Positions 2,790-32,501 of a stretch of DNA of 64,000 bases are shown here, piece after piece; positions within the stretch are counted from its first letter, which is position 1; every line of letters begins with the position of its first letter. The DNA comes from Phycisphaerales bacterium (GTDB taxonomy: Bacteria > Planctomycetota > Phycisphaerae > Phycisphaerales > UBA1924), in the NCBI GenBank assembly GCA_044221955.1, contig JBGAOD010000002.1:1197-65196 (forward strand), written 5' to 3'. The position numbers and the translations under genes were made by a program. The notes below the pieces were generated by a model. It made no database searches. It was given only the letters and a program-made list of their open reading frames with translations, and was not told the origin of the DNA.

Positions 2790-4175
2790 GTGGCTGCGCG
2801 TCATCATCCCGAAATCACTCCGGCGGCGTCCCGTGCCGTGGCGGTGGATATTGTGCGGCAGCTCCGAGGGGCGGGCCATGTCGCCTATCTCGCGGGGGGG
2901 TGCGTGCGCGACGAGTTGTTGGGGCAACATCCCACCGACTACGACGTGGCGACCGACGCGCCGCCGCTGCGTATTTCTGAGTTGTTCCCGCGCACGGCCG
3001 AGGTCGGCGCGAGCTTCGGCGTGGTGCTGGTGAAATCAAGCGGTGTGTCGGTCGAGGTCGCGACGTTCCGCAGCGACGGGCCGTATTCGGACCGGCGTCG
3101 GCCTGACACGGTGCGTTTCAGCGATCCCAGGTCCGACGCGCTTCGGCGTGATTTTACGATCAACGCGCTGTTTCTCGATCCGATCGACTCAACCGGCGCG
3201 TGCGTTCCTGTGAGCCCGGGCGTCGGGAGCGGTGGGGGAGCGGCCGGCGGGCGAGTGATCGACTTTGTCGGCGGGCAAGCAGACCTGCGCGCAAAGATCC
3301 TGCGCGCCGTTGGCGACCCGGACCAGAGGCTGTCCGAGGATCACTTGCGGGCGCTGCGGGCGGTCCGGTTCACGGCTCGCCTGGGCTTCACCATCGAGCC
3401 CGCGACGTGGTCCGCGCTGGTTCGACACGCGCAAGGGTTGGAGGGGGTGAGCCGCGAGCGGATCGGCGACGAGCTGCGGCGGATGCTGCTTGACCCGAAC
3501 CGAGCCAGCGCGATCTCGTTGCTCCAGTCGCTGGGCCTGGACGCGCCGGTGCTCCAAGAGCAAAGCTTGTTGCGGGCGCCGGAGCTGGTCGCGGCGGTGC
3601 GTTTTTCTGATGACGACGCCACGACACGGTTCGCGTGCGTGCTGGGCGCGTGGGCGTTGGATCGGGGGCTGTCGGTGCAGCCGGAGGACACGGCGGCGTC
3701 GGGCGGCCCAAAGCCGGGTTCTCAGAGGGGTCGAACTCCGGGCCCGGTGGCTGGCTTGGTTTCGCGTTGGCGATCGGCGTTGTGCCTCTCCAACGACGAA
3801 GTGGGGTTGTTGTCGCGGGTGTTGGTGACGCTGGGAGAGCTCGAACATCGGTGGGCGTCGGCCGGGGTGGCGGCGCGGAAGCGGCTCGCTTCGGCCCAAA
3901 TATTTCCCGAATCTTTGCGGATCTTGCGTGCGAAACACCCGGAGATGGCTGCCGCTGTGGACTCGGATCTTCGGTTGCTCGCGGCGACCCCGAGCGGCCT
4001 CGCGCCCGAACCACTGATTACCGGGGATGTGTTGATCGAGGCGGGGATGAAGGCGGGCCCGGCGTTCAAAGCCACGCTCGACGGGGTGTACGACGCGCAG
4101 CTTGAGGATCGGGTGACCACTCGATCGGAGGCGCTGGATTTGGCGTTTCGAATCGCTCGTGGATCTGTCCGGTAG
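2790..4175 (+). CDS. tRNA nucleotidyltransferase / poly(A) polymerase family protein (CCA-adding-enzyme-like)
   Basis: Class II nucleotidyltransferase head motifs 'YLAGGCVRDELLG..PTDYDVAT' and 'RRDFTINAL'. I placed the start at the GTG after the upstream gene's stop, so it is uncertain. Confidence 0.8.
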   Translation: MAARHHPEITPAASRAVAVDIVRQLRGAGHVAYLAGGCVRDELLGQHPTDYDVATDAPPLRISELFPRTAEVGASFGVVLVKSSGVSVEVATFRSDGPYSDRRRPDTVRFSDPRSDALRRDFTINALFLDPIDSTGACVPVSPGVGSGGGAAGGRVIDFVGGQADLRAKILRAVGDPDQRLSEDHLRALRAVRFTARLGFTIEPATWSALVRHAQGLEGVSRERIGDELRRMLLDPNRASAISLLQSLGLDAPVLQEQSLLRAPELVAAVRFSDDDATTRFACVLGAWALDRGLSVQPEDTAASGGPKPGSQRGRTPGPVAGLVSRWRSALCLSNDEVGLLSRVLVTLGELEHRWASAGVAARKRLASAQIFPESLRILRAKHPEMAAAVDSDLRLLAATPSGLAPEPLITGDVLIEAGMKAGPAFKATLDGVYDAQLEDRVTTRSEALDLAFRIARGSVR

Positions 4176-4333
4176 AGGTACGGGCCGGATCGTTGGAACT
4201 TTGGACTCCGGCAAGCGTCTAAAATAGGTGAACGTTCGATTCACTGCCGGGACCATTCTGCGCCGGCGTCTTTGGGTTTCCTCCTTCTCCTGCCGTGTTG
4301 CCTGAGAACCGGTCCACATTTGGGAGCTTGTCC

Positions 4334-5836
4334 ATGACCAATCAGAACTCGATCCATCGATTGGCCCTGCGTTGCGTGCGGGCTCGGGGTGTTGCCGCCG
4401 CGTTGGTGGTCGCTGCGGGCGTCTTGGTCGGTTCGCGGGCGCTGGCGGTTCAACCCGCCAAGGAACCTGCGAAGGAATCCGCGACGAAGGCGGCCCCGAA
4501 GCAGGGCGGCGAGGACATGCTGATTCTCCGCGACGGGCGGGTGATCAAGGGCAAGTTTGTTTCCGAGACGGACACGGCGGTTCGTTTCCGCGGGACCGTG
4601 GCAGGAATCGAAGTGGAGTCTGAGTATCCCAAGTCAGACATCCTGGAAACACGGCGTGCCGTGGCCGACCCGGCCGCGCCCGCCAAGCCCGGGGACGCGA
4701 AGGCCAAGCCCAAGATTGAGAAGGAGAGCGAACCCAAGAAGGACGCCAAGGAGAAGCCGGCGGCGGATGTCGCGGCGTCCGGTGACGTCAAGTCCAAGGT
4801 CTATGTGCTGGAGCTGGACGGCAAGTTCGGGCGTGACATTTCCCAGACGCCGATCCGCAAGGCCATGGAAGACGCCAAGAAGCTTGGGAGCGAGTACGTG
4901 ATCGTGGTGATGAACAACGACTGGTCGCAGGGAGGGCAGCAGCTCGATGATGACGCGGCGGCGTTCGACCAACTCTCTCGATCGGCGGAGATGGACCCGA
5001 TCTTTGACGTTGAATTGAGCAAGTGGACCAAGCAACCCAAGCTCGTGTTCTGGGTGAAAAAGGCGATGGGCGGCGCGGCGTTCCTGCCGCTGCTGTGCCA
5101 CGACATCTACTTCCACAGCGACGGGAAAATGGGCGGCATCGGCAACCTGACAAAGCTCTTTGACTTCGGCGACGAGGTGGTGCGGCAGAAGCAGTATTCG
5201 CTGCGCTTGGGGCGGGCCGAAGGCAAGGCCAACGAGGGCGGGTACTCGTACCGGCTGGTGCGGGCGATGGCGGTTCCCGAGTACGTGCTGAGCTATTCGA
5301 TCGAGGGCGGGCAGGTGAGGTATTTCGAGCGGATGCCGGAGAACCCCAACGAGTTCCTGCTGACCGATGACGGCAAGGACGCCAACCAGGATTCGGACAA
5401 GGCCATCATCTCGGGTGAGGGCAACGACGTGCTGACGCTCAACGCCAAGCTCGCCAAGGACCTACAGGTGGCCAAGGGGATCGTGGATACCGAAGAGGAT
5501 CTGCTGTTCGAGCTCGGGCTCTCGCGCAACGCCGACAAAACCTACGGGCGCTCCAAGGAGATCATGAAGAGCTGGAGCAAGGATGTGGACCAGGCCGAGC
5601 GGGATATCCAGCGGATGCTGAGCGAGACTCAGGAGCAGCGTCCCAGTTCGACCTATGACGAGCGGGTCCGGTCGCGCGGGATCGAGAAGGCGTTGTGGCT
5701 CAAGATCATCAGCACGCTGGACAGGTACGGCGAGGCTCTTCCCAAGTTCAAGGGTCTCAAGGCCCAGGCGCTCGATCGCATCAAGGCGATCGACAATGAA
5801 TCGACCATGGACGCTCAGCAGCGGAAGAAGAAATAA
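4334..5836 (+). CDS. secreted ClpP/S49 (NfeD-like) fold protein, paralog 1 (Ser position degenerate)
   Basis: Signal peptide 'AAALVVAAGVLVGSRALAVQP', a small beta domain and a K/E/P-rich linker. These are followed by 'VYVLELDGKFG...YVIVVMNNDWSQGG...AMGGAAFLPLLCHDIYFHSDGKMGGIG', which resembles the NfeD/SppA ClpP-like core. Same layout as the next gene. Confidence 0.55.
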   Translation: MTNQNSIHRLALRCVRARGVAAALVVAAGVLVGSRALAVQPAKEPAKESATKAAPKQGGEDMLILRDGRVIKGKFVSETDTAVRFRGTVAGIEVESEYPKSDILETRRAVADPAAPAKPGDAKAKPKIEKESEPKKDAKEKPAADVAASGDVKSKVYVLELDGKFGRDISQTPIRKAMEDAKKLGSEYVIVVMNNDWSQGGQQLDDDAAAFDQLSRSAEMDPIFDVELSKWTKQPKLVFWVKKAMGGAAFLPLLCHDIYFHSDGKMGGIGNLTKLFDFGDEVVRQKQYSLRLGRAEGKANEGGYSYRLVRAMAVPEYVLSYSIEGGQVRYFERMPENPNEFLLTDDGKDANQDSDKAIISGEGNDVLTLNAKLAKDLQVAKGIVDTEEDLLFELGLSRNADKTYGRSKEIMKSWSKDVDQAERDIQRMLSETQEQRPSSTYDERVRSRGIEKALWLKIISTLDRYGEALPKFKGLKAQALDRIKAIDNESTMDAQQRKKK

Positions 5837-5921
5837 CCGCGAGGAGCCCGCATGGTCGTGCGGGTATCACAGTCGGCAGGAATCCGGCCCGATCCGGGCC
5901 TTCAAACACGGAGCACCAGGA

Positions 5922-7304
5922 ATGAAGAAGAATCACGTTCGCGCCCTGCTGGCGGCGGTCTGCACGGCAAGTTCGGTCGTTGCCATGAGTGTGGCGTTCC
6001 CGTCCGCGCTGCCCGCCCGGGCGGGACTTCCCGCGCTCTCGGACGGTGGGTCCGACAAGATCACGGTGAAGAAAGAAGGCAAGCCCTCCGAGGTTCTGGA
6101 AGGCCGAATCACCAAAGAGGTCGAGGGCTGGGTGTGGTTCACGCGCGTGCAGGGCGGCGTAGAGACTCCGATGGTGCTCAACCCCAAGGACATCGAGAAA
6201 ATCGAACGGGGCGATTCGACGCCCGCAGAATCCAAGCCGAAAACCGAAGAGCCCGCCGCCAAACCGAGCGGCAAGGCGGATGACAAGAGCGGCAAGCCCC
6301 GGGCCATCAGCGGGGTCCCCAAGGCGGCGGTGCTGACCCTCGAAGGGCAGGTCGGCGTGCAGTTCGCCGCCAAGCCGCTTGAGGAAGCGATCCCGATGCT
6401 CGAAGAAGACGGCGTGAGCATCGTGGTGTTCAAGATCAACTCGGGCGGTGGGTATCTGTACGAAGTGCAGTTCCTGAGCGATCTGGTCCACCTCAAGTAC
6501 AAACAGAAGTTCCGGACGGTCGCGTGGATCGAGTCCGCGATCTCCGCGGCCGCGATGACCGCCCACTCGCTGGAGGAAATCTACTTCCTGCCCAAGGGCA
6601 ACTACGGAGCCTGCACAGGTTGGAGCGGCGCTCTGGACGCCATGAAGGGGCGGTCGCTCGAGCAGCTCCTGTTGACCGGTGAGAAGTACTCGGCCCGTGG
6701 CAACCATCCCCCGCAGATCATGCGGGCAATGCAGATCTCCTCGGAAGAATCAGAGCTTCAGGCCCTGCAAATCTCGCCGCCCGGCGGACAGCTCTCGGCG
6801 GACATCAACCCCGCCACCGGCGAGGTCACGTGGTACCAGGGCCTCGAAGGGCAGTACACGCTCAATCCCAAGGGCGGCGTTCACATCCTGACCTTCAACT
6901 CCGAGGAAGCCGAGCGGTTCAAGTTCTCGCGCGGGACGGCCAAGGACGTCGCCGAGCTTGGCAAGCTGATGGGGTATCAGGAGATCGAGTGGGTTGGTAA
7001 GGACGTCAAGGGCATTCCTTACCCGGTTTCCCGCGCCGAGGAAAAGCAGATCAAGTGGCGCAAGGACACCACCGAGGCCGAGGAGAACTTCAACACCTAC
7101 ACCAACGAATATCAGCGGAACGTGCAGACGGCCCAATCCACGCAGGACAAGTCCGACCGCGGGCTGTGGATCGGCAAGGCGTCGCGCTCGCTGGACTTCT
7201 TGGAAAACCTGGTCAAGAAGCAGCCGAACCTGGCGCTGTTCAAGGGGCTGAGCAAGGATTGGTTCGCCCAGCAGCGTGAGCTTCTCAAGAAGCTCGCGAA
7301 GTAG
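5922..7304 (+). CDS. secreted ClpP/S49 (NfeD-like) fold protein, paralog 2
   Basis: Signal peptide 'MKKNHVRALLAAVCTASSVVAMSVA'. 'AAVLTLEGQVG...VVFKINSGGGYLYE...AISAAAMTAHSLEEIYFLPKGNYGA' matches the TPGG / (A)xSAxA motifs of NfeD/S49 peptidases. The domain order is the same as in the upstream gene. Confidence 0.55.
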   Translation: MKKNHVRALLAAVCTASSVVAMSVAFPSALPARAGLPALSDGGSDKITVKKEGKPSEVLEGRITKEVEGWVWFTRVQGGVETPMVLNPKDIEKIERGDSTPAESKPKTEEPAAKPSGKADDKSGKPRAISGVPKAAVLTLEGQVGVQFAAKPLEEAIPMLEEDGVSIVVFKINSGGGYLYEVQFLSDLVHLKYKQKFRTVAWIESAISAAAMTAHSLEEIYFLPKGNYGACTGWSGALDAMKGRSLEQLLLTGEKYSARGNHPPQIMRAMQISSEESELQALQISPPGGQLSADINPATGEVTWYQGLEGQYTLNPKGGVHILTFNSEEAERFKFSRGTAKDVAELGKLMGYQEIEWVGKDVKGIPYPVSRAEEKQIKWRKDTTEAEENFNTYTNEYQRNVQTAQSTQDKSDRGLWIGKASRSLDFLENLVKKQPNLALFKGLSKDWFAQQRELLKKLAK

Positions 7305-28412: not shown

Positions 28413-29687
28413 GTGGTGCTCCTGAGCGTCACGCTCCTCCGCGTCCTCGGCGTCACGCCCACCAGCGACCCGGGTGAAAAAGAACTCCTCCGCCTCTGGT
28501 ACCTCACGCTCGGGCTCGCGGTCGTTCTTGGCTTCGTGTCCATCACGATCGACCTGCTCACCAAGAGAAAGAAAATCGCCACACTCACCGGAATCTTCGC
28601 CGGCGTCGTGATCGGCATGCTCCTCACCGGCGCGCTCAGCTTCGTCATCGAACTCCTGCTCAAGACCTACCAGCTCGACTCCACCTGGGGCTCGATGCTC
28701 AAGATCCTCGTGGGCATCTGCTTCTGCTACCTCGGCGTCACCATCGTCCTACAAACCCAGGACGATTTCCGACTCGTCATTCCTTACGTCGAGTTCGCCA
28801 AACAGATGCGCGGCGTGCGCCCGCTCATGCTCGACTCCTCCGCCCTCATCGACGGCCGAATCGTCGACGTCGCCGCCACCGGCCTCGTCCAAGCACCCAT
28901 CGTCATCCCACGCTTCGTGGTCCTCGAACTCCAGGCCCTCGCCGACAGCGCCGACAAACTCAAGCGCGCCCGAGGCCGGCGCGGGCTCGACATGGTCGGC
29001 AAGCTCCAACGCAACGGCAAGCTCGACATCTCCATCGACCCCAAGGCCGTCCCCGGCAAGGGCGTCGACCAGATGATCGTCGAACTCGCTCGCCAGCTCG
29101 ACGCGATGGTCGTCACCACCGACTCCGGCCTCTCGCGCGTCGCGTCGATCCAAGGCGTCCCCGTCCTGAACCTGCACGACCTCGCCGTGGCCGTGAAGCC
29201 GTCGCTGGTCACCGGCGAAACCCTCGAACTCCGCCTCGTCAAACGCGGCGAACAACCCCAGCAAGGCGTCGGCTACCTCGACGACGGCACCATGGTGGTG
29301 GTCGAAGACGGCCGGGAGGCGATCGATCAGGAAGTCGAGGTCACGGTGGTCTCCACCCTGCAGACCTCGGCGGGGCGGATGATCTTCGCGAAGTTGGCAC
29401 GAGGGATGGCGGAATATGCGGCGAAAGACGGTGCGAGAGATGGGGTTGGGCCGCCGGGGCCGACGGTCGAGCTGACGCAGTTGGCGGCGGCCGACAACGG
29501 CGATTCGACGATCGCGGATGATGAGATCACCGAACCCGAGGCCTCCAATTCACGCGACGCGGTCAACCAGCACACGGCCACGAACCCCGAACCTCACGCC
29601 GCTGAGCCCACCCCACGCGAGAAGTCCGGGCCGTTCCCGCCGAACGCGCCGCGCAGGCCGAACCGCTTACGCAACCCGAGGCGATAG
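28413..29687 (+). CDS. YacL-like membrane PIN/TRAM domain protein
   Basis: N-terminal TM helices, PIN core 'LMLDSSALIDGRIVDVAATGLV..IVIPRFVLELQALADS', 'KRARGRRGLDMV', and TRAM 'GETLELRLVKRGEQPQQGVGYLDDGTMVVVEDG'. The reading frame is open and hydrophobic ('KVLLTIVRVVFVV') for 43 codons upstream of the first canonical start, so the annotated start is doubtful. Confidence 0.8.
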   Translation: MVLLSVTLLRVLGVTPTSDPGEKELLRLWYLTLGLAVVLGFVSITIDLLTKRKKIATLTGIFAGVVIGMLLTGALSFVIELLLKTYQLDSTWGSMLKILVGICFCYLGVTIVLQTQDDFRLVIPYVEFAKQMRGVRPLMLDSSALIDGRIVDVAATGLVQAPIVIPRFVVLELQALADSADKLKRARGRRGLDMVGKLQRNGKLDISIDPKAVPGKGVDQMIVELARQLDAMVVTTDSGLSRVASIQGVPVLNLHDLAVAVKPSLVTGETLELRLVKRGEQPQQGVGYLDDGTMVVVEDGREAIDQEVEVTVVSTLQTSAGRMIFAKLARGMAEYAAKDGARDGVGPPGPTVELTQLAAADNGDSTIADDEITEPEASNSRDAVNQHTATNPEPHAAEPTPREKSGPFPPNAPRRPNRLRNPRR

Positions 29688-29743
29688 AAGATCGTCGCCG
29701 AGTTCGATCTCCGTGGCGCTGAGCTGAGGTCTGCGTTATCGCG

Positions 29744-29767
29744 CAGGTGTTCCACATGGAACACCTG
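29744..29767. other. stem-loop CAGGTGTTCC-ACAT-GGAACACCTG (10-bp stem) downstream of the PIN/TRAM gene
   Basis: Read directly from the sequence. No T-tract follows, so it is not a canonical intrinsic terminator. It shares CAGGT...ACCTGCCC ends with the hairpin at 55632-55652. Confidence 0.5.
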
Positions 29768-29775
29768 CCCGGCCT

Positions 29776-29794
29776 GGGGGGGGGGTGGGGGGGG
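29776..29794. repeat. G10-T-G8 homopolymeric tract
   Basis: GGGGGGGGGGTGGGGGGGG, read directly. The position is anchored by the GTG of track ORF 29785. It is intergenic, 9 nt after the hairpin. Confidence 0.9.
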
Positions 29795-29992
29795 AGCGGA
29801 ATCCGGCGTGGCGTTGCTTGACTTGGGGGATCGCGCGGTCGTGTGCGCGCTTGATCGTGCACATGGGAGGGCATCCTCGCGCCGCTGAAGTCGCCTGGCG
29901 GTTACTTCCGCGCTCCCCCGTTGTTGGCGGCTTCGGTGCTTGGGCGAGGTCGGCGCTCGGGTCGTCGGTTGGGCAGGATCAAACCAAAGGCT

Positions 29993-30050
29993 CACTGAGG
30001 TCGCCTTCGGGGTGCTGGGAACTTGGAAGTCCAAGGAGGCGACCTCAGTG
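29993..30050. other. long stem-loop (14-bp perfect stem CACTGAGGTCGCCT / AGGCGACCTCAGTG, 30-nt loop) 3' of the SIR2-like gene
   Basis: Read directly. It lies 29 nt beyond the stop of the minus-strand gene 30079..31071, at the GC-rich edge of the low-GC island. It could be a terminator or a boundary structure. Confidence 0.55.
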
Positions 30051-30078
30051 CCACGAAGTCAGTTCCACCTGCCGCCGC

Positions 30079-31071
30079 CTAGGATTGATTACAAATGTGC
30101 CAGGGGAACGCAGTCCGAAGGAATCTTGCTGCGTCCATCTTTGAATCTGTCACCATAACGTTTTCATCAATGCCACGCAATATTGATTCGAATCGAAAGC
30201 GCTCTTGTCCGTCTAGTTGAAATCCTGTTGCGAAGCACCGGGCTCGCTTGGTAGAAGTGGAAAAGGCGCCTTGTACGATTTCCTGTAGATTTTGACCGGC
30301 CTGACCCACGCCAAGCACTCCAACAATCCTACAGCTTCTAAGCCTTTCGACCAAATGGTCAGCATCTAGGGATGAATCACTTGGCTCGTGCCACATCCTA
30401 AAGTGATCTATTAGACCCTTACACCTCTTGATCGAAGAAACCTCATCGAATGGAACGCTTCGCGGATCATTCTCGCGTCCCGGCGCGAAGTCGCCAACCT
30501 TCCCGTGCACATGGATAATTGGGATTTTCGAAATTGCGTTCCAGGCTTCGGTTGCAGTAATACCCCAAGCGTGCTGCATCGCTGTTGTGAGATACATTTC
30601 AAGAAGTCGATCGTAATTGAATGTAATAAAAACAATCTTGTGCTTCACAAAATCTTCGGGAGGGCACTTTATTCGGTCCCACAGCACTCTCATCCAGTCT
30701 GAATCTCGCTCGCCATCAAGTAAAAGCTGAAGGTTCTTGTCCCTTTCGGAGGCCTCGTACTCCTTATGCCGGATCAGTAATGCAACCAGCAGTTTCCCCC
30801 ATGAAACAAGATCGGGATTCGAAGATCGGGTGCGAAGAAACTCGTCAATGGAAAAAAGCCTAGATCCATACAATTCTTTTCGAAACTCGGAATGAGCTAG
30901 TCGAAATCTATTCAATTCGTCTGGACTTAATCCTTTTGTCATGAAGTCGGAAAAACTCGCGTTGATAATCGACTCGACGAGTCCGGGACCGGACGGGAAT
31001 TTAAATGGAATGCTCGTCCCAGCTCCGAGAATAAATGCCGTTGGCTGTTGAATTATGGTGTCAAACTGCAT
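30079..31071 (-). CDS. stand-alone SIR2_2-type (ThsA/DSR-like sirtuin-fold) protein, candidate NAD+-consuming defence effector
   Basis: This is the only long ORF in an AT-enriched island. Motifs are 'FILGAGTSIPFKFPSG', 'IVFITFNYDRLLE' and 'IPIIHVHGKVG'. A C-terminal ~110 aa is unassigned. I placed the start at Met 'MQFDTII'; the track ORF extends to 31149. Confidence 0.7.
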   Translation of the reverse strand: MQFDTIIQQPTAFILGAGTSIPFKFPSGPGLVESIINASFSDFMTKGLSPDELNRFRLAHSEFRKELYGSRLFSIDEFLRTRSSNPDLVSWGKLLVALLIRHKEYEASERDKNLQLLLDGERDSDWMRVLWDRIKCPPEDFVKHKIVFITFNYDRLLEMYLTTAMQHAWGITATEAWNAISKIPIIHVHGKVGDFAPGRENDPRSVPFDEVSSIKRCKGLIDHFRMWHEPSDSSLDADHLVERLRSCRIVGVLGVGQAGQNLQEIVQGAFSTSTKRARCFATGFQLDGQERFRFESILRGIDENVMVTDSKMDAARFLRTAFPWHICNQS

Positions 31072-31220
31072 GTGTGATTCCGAAGCGAATAAGTGCCATT
31101 CTTGCCAATCGCCTTGCCAAATCCCTTTTAAACTCGCGATCAGCAGCAAGCCGCTCTCAACATCGCTTCTGACAGTACCGAATACGTTCGGCCACTTCGG
31201 ATGACAGCTCTACCTCGACT

Positions 31221-32501
31221 CTACAACTTCTTCAACGCCCCCACTAGCTCATCAATATGCCCCGTCGTGTGCGCCGCCGAGATCTGGCAGCGCAGTCTCG
31301 CGTGGCCCTCGGCCACCACTGGGTAGCCGAAGCCGATCACGAAGACGCCCAGTTCCAGCAGGCGTTTGCTCATGGCGATGGCCTTGGCGGTGTCGCCCAC
31401 GATGATGGGGCAGATGGCGGTGGGTGATTTGAGCACGTCGAACCCGGCCTCGGCGATCTTCTTGCGGGCGTAGGCCACGTTGTCGCGGAGTTTGGCCACG
31501 CGCTGGGGCTCGCGGAGCACGATCTCGATCGCTTTGCGGGCCGAGCAGGCGATGGTGACGGGGAGGGCGTTGGAGAAGAGCGTTGGTCGGCCGCGTTGGA
31601 TCAGCAGTTCGATCACGCGCGAAGAGGCCGCCACGAATCCGCCGGCGCCGCCGCCGAGGGCCTTGCCGAGCGTGCCGGTAAAAATGTCAACGCGGCCTGG
31701 GTTCTTCCCGCCGTCGATCATCCCCCAATGCTCGTGCGTGCCGCGGCCGAGCTGCCCCATCACGCCGTGGCCGTGGCTGTCGTCCACCACCAGCATCGCG
31801 TTGAACTCGTCGCAGAGTTTCCGCATCGCGGGCAGGTCCGCGAGCGAGCCCTCCATGCTGAAGACGCCGTCGGTCACGACCCAGATCTGGCCGGTGACTT
31901 CCTTGTTCGCGGCCGCTTTCTGCAGGGCCTCGCGCAGGGAGCCTTCGCCCTCGAGCCGGTTGTTTTTGTAGATGCCCTTGTGGATGCCCTTCTTGATTGT
32001 GGTGGCGAGGCGGATGGAATCGATGATGCAGGCGTGGTTGAGTTCGTCGGAGATGATGATGTCGCCGGGCTCGCAGAGGGTCGGGAAGACGGCCTCGTTG
32101 GCGGTCCACGCGCTCACGAACGAGTAGCTCGCTTCCGTTCCCATGTATTCCGTGATCGTCCGTTCGAGCGTTTCGTGCGGGCCGAACGTGCCGCAGATGA
32201 AGCGCACGCTGGCGGTCCCGGCCCCGAAGTCCTTCAGTCCCTTCAACCCGGCCTCAACGACCTCGGGGTGGTTGGCGAGCCCGAGGTAGTTGTTCGAGCA
32301 GAAGCACAGTACCTCGGCGATCTTGCCGTCGGGCTTGCGCATCTTGACCACGGCGTCCATGGGGCTTTCGAGGGTTTGAAGGTGCTTGTAGAGGCCTTCC
32401 TTGCGGATCTGTTCGAGCAGCCCGGTTGCCCGGGAATCGAAAATCGTTGAGTGAGTGTGGCCGAGTTTGTTTGTGCGCGTTTCGGGTTTGGTGCTCAACA
32501 T
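31221..32501 (-). CDS. kbl: glycine C-acetyltransferase (2-amino-3-ketobutyrate CoA ligase)
   Basis: Alpha-oxoamine synthase motifs 'FCSNNYLGLANHPEV', 'ASVRFICGT', 'DELNHACIIDSIRL', 'DGVFSMEG', 'VDDSHGHGVMG' and the PLP lysine in 'GTLGKALGG'. The N-terminus may be shorter than the ORF. Confidence 0.9.
   Translation of the reverse strand: MLSTKPETRTNKLGHTHSTIFDSRATGLLEQIRKEGLYKHLQTLESPMDAVVKMRKPDGKIAEVLCFCSNNYLGLANHPEVVEAGLKGLKDFGAGTASVRFICGTFGPHETLERTITEYMGTEASYSFVSAWTANEAVFPTLCEPGDIIISDELNHACIIDSIRLATTIKKGIHKGIYKNNRLEGEGSLREALQKAAANKEVTGQIWVVTDGVFSMEGSLADLPAMRKLCDEFNAMLVVDDSHGHGVMGQLGRGTHEHWGMIDGGKNPGRVDIFTGTLGKALGGGAGGFVAASSRVIELLIQRGRPTLFSNALPVTIACSARKAIEIVLREPQRVAKLRDNVAYARKKIAEAGFDVLKSPTAICPIIVGDTAKAIAMSKRLLELGVFVIGFGYPVVAEGHARLRCQISAAHTTGHIDELVGALKKL

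Follow-up and report, generated by a model that had tools for sequence, protein, structure and literature searches.

A one-gene, low-G+C island in a planctomycete genome encodes a stand-alone SIR2 protein of a large unnamed family

To our knowledge, the SIR2 defences that deplete nicotinamide adenine dinucleotide (NAD+) and have been studied mechanistically all have the SIR2 domain joined to a sensor or accompanied by a partner protein; only AbiH, the mechanism of which is unknown, is an exception. The locus analysed here raises the question of what a SIR2 protein might do that appears to have neither. It lies in a 64,000-nt stretch of contig JBGAOD010000002.1 of a Phycisphaerales bacterium (hereafter the window), between a kbl-like gene and a gene for a YacL-like protein. 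A first-pass annotation, made from the letters alone, had described a low-G+C island there with a single gene for a candidate defence NADase of the SIR2_2 type, possibly acquired by horizontal transfer. We find that an immune-type SIR2 domain makes up the whole protein, and that its gene belongs to a large family of solitary, mobile genes. It is plausible, by analogy with characterised relatives, that it serves as a self-contained NAD-depleting anti-phage module.

The island is set apart by its composition. Measured in 300-nt windows, the G+C content is 0.44–0.52 from ~30050 to ~31250, against 0.59–0.70 on both sides, where ~0.66 is typical. The 1-kb bin at 30001–31000 stands at 0.488 and all the remaining 1-kb bins of the window lie between 0.61 and 0.70; the lowest 1-kb window reaches 0.474 (z = −8.9 versus the rest of the window). 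The L1 distance in tetranucleotide usage between the island and the rest is 0.675, where equal-sized pieces give 0.276 ± 0.029 (z = 13.9). The collapse in base composition that had been noted from hand counts is thus borne out in sliding windows of both sizes, and the island is foreign by both measures. The proposed shift to codons ending in A or T holds as well, with a G+C content at third codon positions (GC3) of 0.48 in the SIR2 gene (0.477 before rounding) as compared with 0.80–0.88 in four neighbours (kbl-like, 0.876; yacL-like, 0.861; two further genes, 0.815 and 0.796). The edges in composition are sharp, falling at the kbl stop codon (31221) on one side and at ~30055 on the other. No flanking direct repeats, target-site duplication or terminal inverted repeats were found at the island, nor any tRNA or Rfam match, and there is no integrase among its open reading frames (ORFs).

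There is one credible ORF in the island, as had been stated. Read from a TTG it spans 30079..31149 on the minus strand (356 aa), and from the ATG at 31071 it encodes 330 aa. Because the homologues all start at the position of the ATG, 30079..31071 is the better gene model, and residues are numbered from this ATG below. The other ORFs of the island are at most 74 aa long, and all overlap the SIR2 gene in other frames. The three motifs on which the earlier assignment was based, FILGAGTSIPFKFPSG, FITFNYDRLLE and IIHVHGKVG, are all present. Its Asn178 and His215, counted from the TTG, become N152 and H189, and lie 37 residues apart.

A database search returned 67 relatives, each at most 40% identical to the window protein, ~300 aa in length and unnamed, and 60 members were used for a family alignment and profile. 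The alignment has the signature GAGxS...P.G, SxDxFLE, GK, E, (T)FNYDRSLE, IIHVHG, LGFGYxxxN. Against the family profile built without it, the window protein scores 199 bits over its full length, aligned through residue 321, and it keeps all 12 of the invariant family residues, including N152, D154, H187 and G190. Comparison of the family profile with PDB sequences gave only KomC, the SIR2 NADase of the Kongming system (E = 1.3e-5), and a KomBC chain named NAD-dependent deacetylase. The Gly loop, TTNYDR/TFNYDR and FHG/VHG are aligned with KomC and, more weakly, KomC IGYSLSDIN with the C-terminal LGFGYxxxN of the family. Residues G16, G18, S20, N152, D154 and H189-G190 of the window protein fall on GAGVS, TTNYD and FHG of KomC, and these putative catalytic-site residues are conserved in 58–60 of the 60 sequences. 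G16 and G18 are kept in all 58 sequences that cover the Gly-loop column, and F-N-Y-D-R of the Asn motif is invariant (60/60). H187 is also kept in 60/60, while H189 (codon at 30505–30507) is kept in 58 and is Tyr in two members, P0056 and P0060; the catalytic His may therefore be H187 or H189. The His-Gly of the window protein aligns with KomC FHG, and the PDB has an entry for a KomC(H146N) mutant.

Existing models recognise these proteins less readily. Pfam SIR2_2 (PF13289) matches the window protein with 23.1 bits (E = 8.7e-5), under the gathering cut-off of 24.5 bits, and only over residues 147–194 (profile positions 2–52 of 141), the segment from Asn to His that includes FITFNYDRLLE. The same model matches 55 of the 60 relatives at E ≤ 0.01 (best, 1.3e-6), and about a quarter of the relatives carry a precomputed PF13289 hit. 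Judged by these profile scores, the family is on the fringe of the Pfam SIR2_2 model. No NCBIfam model matches it. PADLOC gives only weak matches to the window protein, from its 'SIR2' (E = 4e-4) and LmuA models, and its 'SIR2' models weakly match 57 of the 60 members (best E, 5e-12). As far as sequence goes, such E-values mark the family as a relative, and not a member, of SIR2-HerA. The earlier assignment of a SIR2_2-type fold with Asn and His at the catalytic positions thus stands; the Pfam cut-off is not reached, and from PADLOC come the weak 'SIR2' matches and no system model.

The structure predicted by AlphaFold2 (AF2) from the family alignment is confident (predicted local distance difference test score (pLDDT) = 89.8, predicted template modelling score (pTM) = 0.90) and comprises a single alpha/beta domain with a long helical insertion. 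It resembles solved SIR2 domains over the whole protein. The best Foldseek matches in the PDB are the SIR2 subunits of SIR2-HerA (E = 4e-5), KomC, DSR2 and SPARSA, with SIRT3 and CobB after them; the 50 matches listed are SIR2 domains or SIR2-containing complexes, with a probability of ~1.0 and 296–427 alignment columns. The term 'ThsA-like' used at first is therefore too loose, the closest structures being those of SIR2-HerA, KomC and DSR2. Classical sirtuins such as CobB and SIRT3 share the Rossmann fold, the Gly loop, the Asn and the His, but they occupy ranks 28–49 with weaker matches (E = 4e-3 to 1e-2, query TM score (TMq) ~0.31–0.35). Their CxxC...CxxC zinc module is absent here, since the window protein has five Cys and no CxxC pair, and NYD is found where sirtuins have QNID. 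Moreover the family is mobile and patchy, whereas classical sirtuins are core genes. From the Foldseek ranking, the PDB profile matches and the lack of a zinc module, the protein is closer to the immune SIR2 domains ('SIRim') than to the deacylases.

Two regions of the model bear on how such a protein might be controlled. The ~110-aa C-terminal region, which had been left unassigned, appears from the model to form the latter half of the SIR2 Rossmann fold and not an extra or sensor domain; it is conserved family-wide and holds the GFGYxxxN that aligns with KomC IGYSLSDIN. In the window protein G254 and N261 of this motif are retained, and F255V and Y257Q are each unique among the 60. The helical insertion contains S74, D76, G92 and E104, which are invariant (60/60) in a region that is all-helical in the AF2 model. 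These family-specific motifs are a candidate ligand or substrate site.

Was the gene acquired by this lineage? The interval was compared with 80 kbl loci of Phycisphaerales genomes in which kbl is 68–82% identical at the amino acid level. No relative of the SIR2 gene lies near kbl in any of the 80. The yacL-like gene is linked to kbl in 15 of them, the sole recurrent linkage, and is the commonest first gene downstream of kbl. In at least five relatives the two genes are convergent neighbours across a gene-free, high-G+C spacer of 17–367 bp, as compared with 1,533 bp in the window. The foreign composition, the absence of the gene from the 80 relatives and the gene-free kbl/yacL junctions together uphold the proposal of horizontal acquisition into a housekeeping neighbourhood, and a one-gene horizontal insertion is well supported. 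The missing tdh, which had been offered as a further sign, is uninformative about the insertion because no tdh-like cluster follows kbl in this lineage (75 related loci). The junctions of the island are too divergent to align with the empty spacers, the sole match being one of 12 nt to an octamer repeat. This repeat, GAAGTCAC, is present in 6–9 tandem copies right after the kbl stop codon in two related loci (L091:7213-7295 and L065:7213-7334); the match, GACTTCGTGGCA, lies at 30050–30061 in the window in the opposite orientation, at the 3' boundary of the island. With an E of 0.024 in a tiny database, it may have arisen by chance, or it may be what is left of the same spacer.

The family was found to be very large. 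An exhaustive profile search gave 12,049 cluster representatives at E ≤ 1e-3, of which 6,607 reach E ≤ 1e-30, and among the 150 best-scoring representatives listed nearly all have ~300 aa. We surveyed 117 loci from genomes, metagenomes and IMG/VR, corresponding to 103 distinct neighbourhoods. The protein is 300–350 aa throughout, save where it is cut by a contig end. Neighbours were clustered over up to three ORFs per side, and no recurrent partner gene emerged; the commonest neighbour families (integrase and DNA methylase) reach 3 of the 103 distinct loci, and a conserved partner gene was accordingly rejected. The earlier statement that no partner ORF fits in the island can thus be widened, as there is none in the island or the 64-kb window and none recurrent across the family. 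By raw counts, the 149 neighbours classified with Pfam and PADLOC include three methylases, three integrases, three TIR_2 proteins, one caspase, a phage portal and a Mu-like protease. Among 65 loci, in hosts of 28–70% G+C, the gene is poorer in G+C than the flanking DNA in 97% (mean difference −7.3 points, p = 7e-12).

Twenty-three IMG/VR contigs carry the family, and these copies are probably prophage or island cargo because integrase, portal and Mu-protease genes adjoin them. That it is a phage gene was rejected, there being no isolated-phage match, no PHROG and no significant BFVD structure. On plasmids the family is rare; distant copies are annotated as 'SIR2 family protein' or hypothetical, and those examined adjoin HipA, IS66, Fic and a restriction endonuclease. 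An upstream RNA antitoxin or short antitoxin ORF (as in type III or type II toxin–antitoxin systems) was rejected too, as there are no ToxI-like repeats and no conserved ORF. Tandem Repeats Finder (TRF) on 64 flank pairs returned just short, patternless repeats of two to five copies, and the same-strand ORFs upstream, with lengths of 61 to 929 aa, form no cluster. In the literature searched, no stand-alone SIR2 family of ~300 aa is described. The picture from the survey is of a solitary, often transferred cargo gene.

Some individual loci depart from this pattern. TIR_2 proteins (at L157:9326-12763 and in two other neighbour ORFs), one of them a 509-aa TIR-TPR protein, lie within two genes of family members (3/149 neighbours), and could be occasional Thoeris-like pairings or reflect co-location in defence islands. 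At L135:489-4219 and L131:173-4161 two divergent family paralogues (38% identity) lie side by side. One of these is split into two ORFs, one running from the N-terminus to the NYD region and the other from HLHG onward, and is probably a pseudogene, a sign that family members turn over and diversify. At L012:1696-6816 and L013, near the end of an 843-kb contig, a ~4.2-kb unit is tandemly duplicated in which a family member of 271 aa is encoded together with an unknown protein of 267 aa and a PemK toxin, with a Schlafen/AlbA_2 gene nearby. In the P0007 lineage (L001-L006, ~3191-7026; 110 contigs) the family gene begins 20 bp after that of a 929-aa RNase_T-DinG-type exonuclease-helicase and has a RelB/ParE pair just downstream. 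The pairing with the exonuclease-helicase could be a lineage-specific two-gene arrangement; it recurs nowhere else.

Does the gene belong to one of the described SIR2 systems? Thoeris, SIR2-HerA, Kongming, DSR and SPARSA each have a partner or sensor that is missing here, so it cannot be placed in any of them. KomC (PDB 8zsf, 9v0g and 9xvc), the best PDB profile match and a Foldseek match also, is similarly small, with 264 aa that are barely more than a SIR2 domain. Yet the identity is only ~14%, and the helical insertion is longer in the window family. KomC acts in complex with KomB, with dITP as the activator (PMC13454610). Kongming requires adjacent komA and komB genes, whereas the flanks here are the kbl-like and PIN-TRAM genes, and no neighbour recurs in the family. 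The SIR2 subunit of SIR2-HerA, or Nezha (PDB 8suw, 8sub and 8j4u), is the best structural match (E = 4e-5 to 9e-4, template modelling (TM) score ~0.45, over the whole query). It needs an adjacent HerA ATPase with which it forms a 12:6 complex, but HerA adjoins none of the 103 family loci, the island has no partner ORF and the window has no HerA-type match.

In DSR1/DSR2, ThsA, SIR2-APAZ with short prokaryotic Argonaute (pAgo; SPARSA) and Avs5 the same SIR2_2/SIRim domain is an NAD+-depleting effector. It is there accompanied by a sensing or regulatory module in cis (for DSR its C-terminal domain, otherwise SLOG/Macro, APAZ or STAND) or by a dedicated partner (ThsB or pAgo), whereas the 330 residues of the window protein are all taken up by the SIR2 fold and it has no partner. 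Thoeris is characterised by fusion of ThsA to SLOG/Macro and an adjacent ThsB; here there is no second domain, and no TIR gene in the island or the window. DSR1 and DSR2 reach ~1,000 aa and have a large sensor region at the C-terminus, as against 330 aa here. AbiH of Lactococcus (PF14253) is likewise a single gene, for a protein of ~330–350 aa. It is sirtuin-like by HHpred and AlphaFold, is found on mobile elements and acts as a single-gene abortive infection (Abi) system for which NAD depletion has been proposed (PMC13064643). The AbiH model matches the window protein weakly over the N..H segment, with 14.5 bits (E = 0.039) versus a cut-off of 30.9, and matches 3 of the 60 family members at E ≤ 0.01, so this is a separate family. 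The window family, though akin to the immune SIR2 systems in its fold and its catalytic site, is therefore a distinct stand-alone lineage.

The rest of the window has 45 likely genes, which are housekeeping in character and are matched in PADLOC by kinase-type models only. HerA, TIR, pAgo and Kom-like models have no match among them. A defence island in the window was rejected on this basis. One of the 45 ORFs encodes a Ser/Thr protein kinase with TPR repeats that matches PADLOC PD-T4-6 and related kinase models (1e-72). Ser/Thr kinases of such type are common in Planctomycetota, and the match is probably one of generic kinase-domain similarity and not that of a defence gene.

The features of the island and its flanks are collected in Table 1. 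The leader was presumably imported together with the SIR2 gene, and has no ORF of its own above 49 aa (that one on the opposite strand). No terminator-like site is predicted between kbl and the SIR2 gene, so read-through transcription from the one into the other is possible. At the other edge the 14-bp hairpin with its U-rich tail lies 29 nt beyond the SIR2 stop codon, at the composition boundary. RNA folding of a 111-nt piece shows the 14-bp stem with a z-score of merely −1.25, and the hairpin may be a terminator at the 3' edge of the island.

Table 1. Features of the island, the SIR2 gene and the flanking host genes (window coordinates).
Feature	Position	Strand	Basis
Low-GC single-gene island, ~1.17 kb	30055..31220	.	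Composition; edges at the kbl stop codon and 24 nt beyond the SIR2 stop
Coding sequence (CDS), 330-aa stand-alone SIR2 (SIR2_2/SIRim-type) protein	30079..31071	-	ORF, profile, AF2 model, Foldseek
NAD-binding Gly loop LGAGTSIPFKFPSG, residues 15-28	30988..31029	-	Alignment with KomC GAGVSMNLGLPS
Helical-insertion motifs S74-x-D76-x-F-L, G92-K93 (E104 further on)	30793..30852	-	Family conservation
Putative catalytic Asn motif FITFNYDRLLE (N152, D154, R155)	30598..30630	-	Aligns with KomC TTNYDRWIE
Putative catalytic His motif IIHVHGKVG	30493..30519	-	H187 invariant; H189 aligns with KomC H146
Degenerate C-terminal Rossmann motif LGVGQAGQN (family consensus LGFGYxxxN)	30289..30315	-	Family alignment
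Low-GC (0.51) leader, 149 nt, kbl stop to SIR2 ATG	31072..31220	-	Composition
Perfect 14-bp inverted repeat, 30-nt loop, then CCUUUGGUUUG on the minus strand	29993..30050	-	Inverted-repeat search
Kbl/BioF-family pyridoxal phosphate (PLP) acyltransferase (kbl-like), host gene, GC3 0.88	31221..32501	-	Pfam Aminotran_1_2, 1.3e-44
PIN-TRAM (YacL-like) protein, host gene, GC3 0.86, convergent with the SIR2 gene	28413..29687	+	Pfam TRAM, PIN, PIN_9

The kbl-like protein scores 424.8 bits with the NCBIfam glycine C-acetyltransferase equivalog, for which the cut-off is 460, and has an N-terminal extension of ~25 residues; it is probably Kbl and not another enzyme of the BioF/Kbl family. The YacL-like protein has an acidic, Pro-rich C-terminal tail of ~80 residues that is uncovered by homologues in most relatives. 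Its tblastn matches stop at residues 327–353 in most relatives and reach 400–405 in three, and its GTG start is uncertain. Just beyond the stop codon of this gene there is a 15-bp near-perfect palindrome (29740–29771) and a long G run (G10-T-G8, ~29775–29795), possibly a terminator or a tract prone to slippage.

The reading we favour, with moderate confidence, is that of a horizontally acquired minimal SIRim-type gene, a divergent member of its large unnamed mobile family, that works as a self-sufficient module for abortive infection or growth arrest. By analogy with the characterised immune SIR2 proteins and AbiH, the protein would bind NAD+ and cleave it (as a NADase, possibly with ADP-ribosyl transfer), and would bring about abortive infection or growth arrest by itself. 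We infer such a role from the function of the characterised immune SIR2 proteins, from the precedent of AbiH, and from the immune SIR2 clade being 12-fold enriched around defence systems (10.1101/2024.09.18.613514). As there is no sensor domain, control would have to reside in the SIR2 domain itself. It would most likely be exerted by the helical insertion of ~115 residues, in which Ser74, Asp76, Gly92 and Glu104 are invariant, and/or by trigger-dependent oligomerisation comparable with the filaments of KomC and the dodecamers of SIR2-HerA. Transcription may occur by read-through from kbl or from a start in the imported 149-nt leader. That the ~300-aa family as a whole is a widespread single-gene anti-phage system, in which a sensor-less NADase detects infection by means of the helical insertion or trigger-induced oligomerisation, is a more tentative proposal and on balance a doubtful one.

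A number of observations weigh against this interpretation of the locus. The relatives with an empty site are distant (kbl 74–76% and YacL 54–57% aa identity), and synteny around kbl is weak in the order, with a best kbl identity of 82% and only yacL ever shared. The window has no defence island, as noted above. Many neighbours of family members are housekeeping genes, including those for Cys-tRNA synthetase, CTP synthase, DNA polymerase III delta' and MscL. The family was not found in 50,697 isolated phage genomes, and no PADLOC system model, PHROG or NCBIfam model claims it; its defence and NADase functions are assigned by analogy. The window protein is also the most divergent of the 60 (199 bits versus 239–387 for the others, which are inside the profile), and given its unique substitutions in GFGY it could be weakened.

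Some of these points would be accommodated if the protein were not immune at all, but an NAD-dependent enzyme (such as an ADP-ribosyltransferase or deacylase with a protein or small molecule as its target) or a selfish toxin-like gene, in either case borne along as accessory cargo, the likeness to immune proteins being one of ancestry only. The housekeeping neighbours, the lack of a defence island in the window and the fact that no defence database claims the family are consistent with this, and the invariant S74, D76, E104 and R155 go beyond what NAD hydrolysis alone explains. We nevertheless regard it as unlikely. Immune SIR2 domains outrank the deacylases structurally and there is no zinc module, while the patchy, foreign, single-gene spread and the integrase, methylase, TIR and prophage neighbours fit defence or mobilome cargo, not metabolic enzymes.

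Alternatively the protein might be a NADase that is not autonomous and depends for its activation in trans on a partner or signal from another locus of the genome. Examples would be a HerA-type ATPase, a TIR/ThsB-like signal synthase or an enzyme that modifies nucleotides, as in Kongming. The closest characterised short SIR2 effectors (KomC, SIR2-HerA and the SPARSA SIR2) all need partners, TIR_2-domain proteins make up 3 of the 149 family neighbours, and the invariant polar residues of the helical insertion could make a ligand pocket. Yet no partner recurs beside the gene in the 103 distinct neighbourhoods, and the 45 likely genes of the window are without a HerA, TIR, pAgo or Kom-like match. 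Reliance on an unlinked partner is hardly likely because the gene spreads alone into many hosts, and we judge such an orphan effector to be slightly less probable again than a non-immune enzyme.

A third possibility concerns this copy of the gene, which might be a passenger that is inactive or being lost in this genome. It has the lowest profile score (199 bits) and the unique F255V and Y257Q in a nearly invariant GFGY, and there are split or degraded paralogues elsewhere (L135). But the reading frame is intact at the full family length, the 12 invariant residues are kept and the AF2 model is confident throughout; in addition the unameliorated composition suggests a recent arrival and not long decay, making this improbable. 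Finally, a chimeric join in a metagenome-assembled contig is very unlikely: the source is evidently a metagenome-assembled genome (MAG) and the identical protein is on record once, on a single 79-kb NCBI contig, with no second assembly of the locus found, but host sequence runs on for ~30 kb on either side and the insert is one complete gene with its leader between intact genes that are neighbours elsewhere, which is not what chimeras normally look like.

For this genome, the locus is a clean textbook case of one-gene horizontal insertion, and its interest lies mainly in the family. Here is a SIR2 domain alone, in thousands of sequence clusters, that moves as a solitary gene between hosts of 28–70% G+C. 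Should it turn out not to be immune, it would stand as a large group of mobile enzymes of unknown role. If instead it is active and protects its host, there would have to be some means of holding a lethal NADase in check and releasing it with no accessory module. Were that true, the protein would be the smallest autonomous SIR2 immune module, the window would present a fresh insertion of it in a planctomycete core-gene junction, and the family would be a very compact addition to the catalogues of defence systems, which now miss it.

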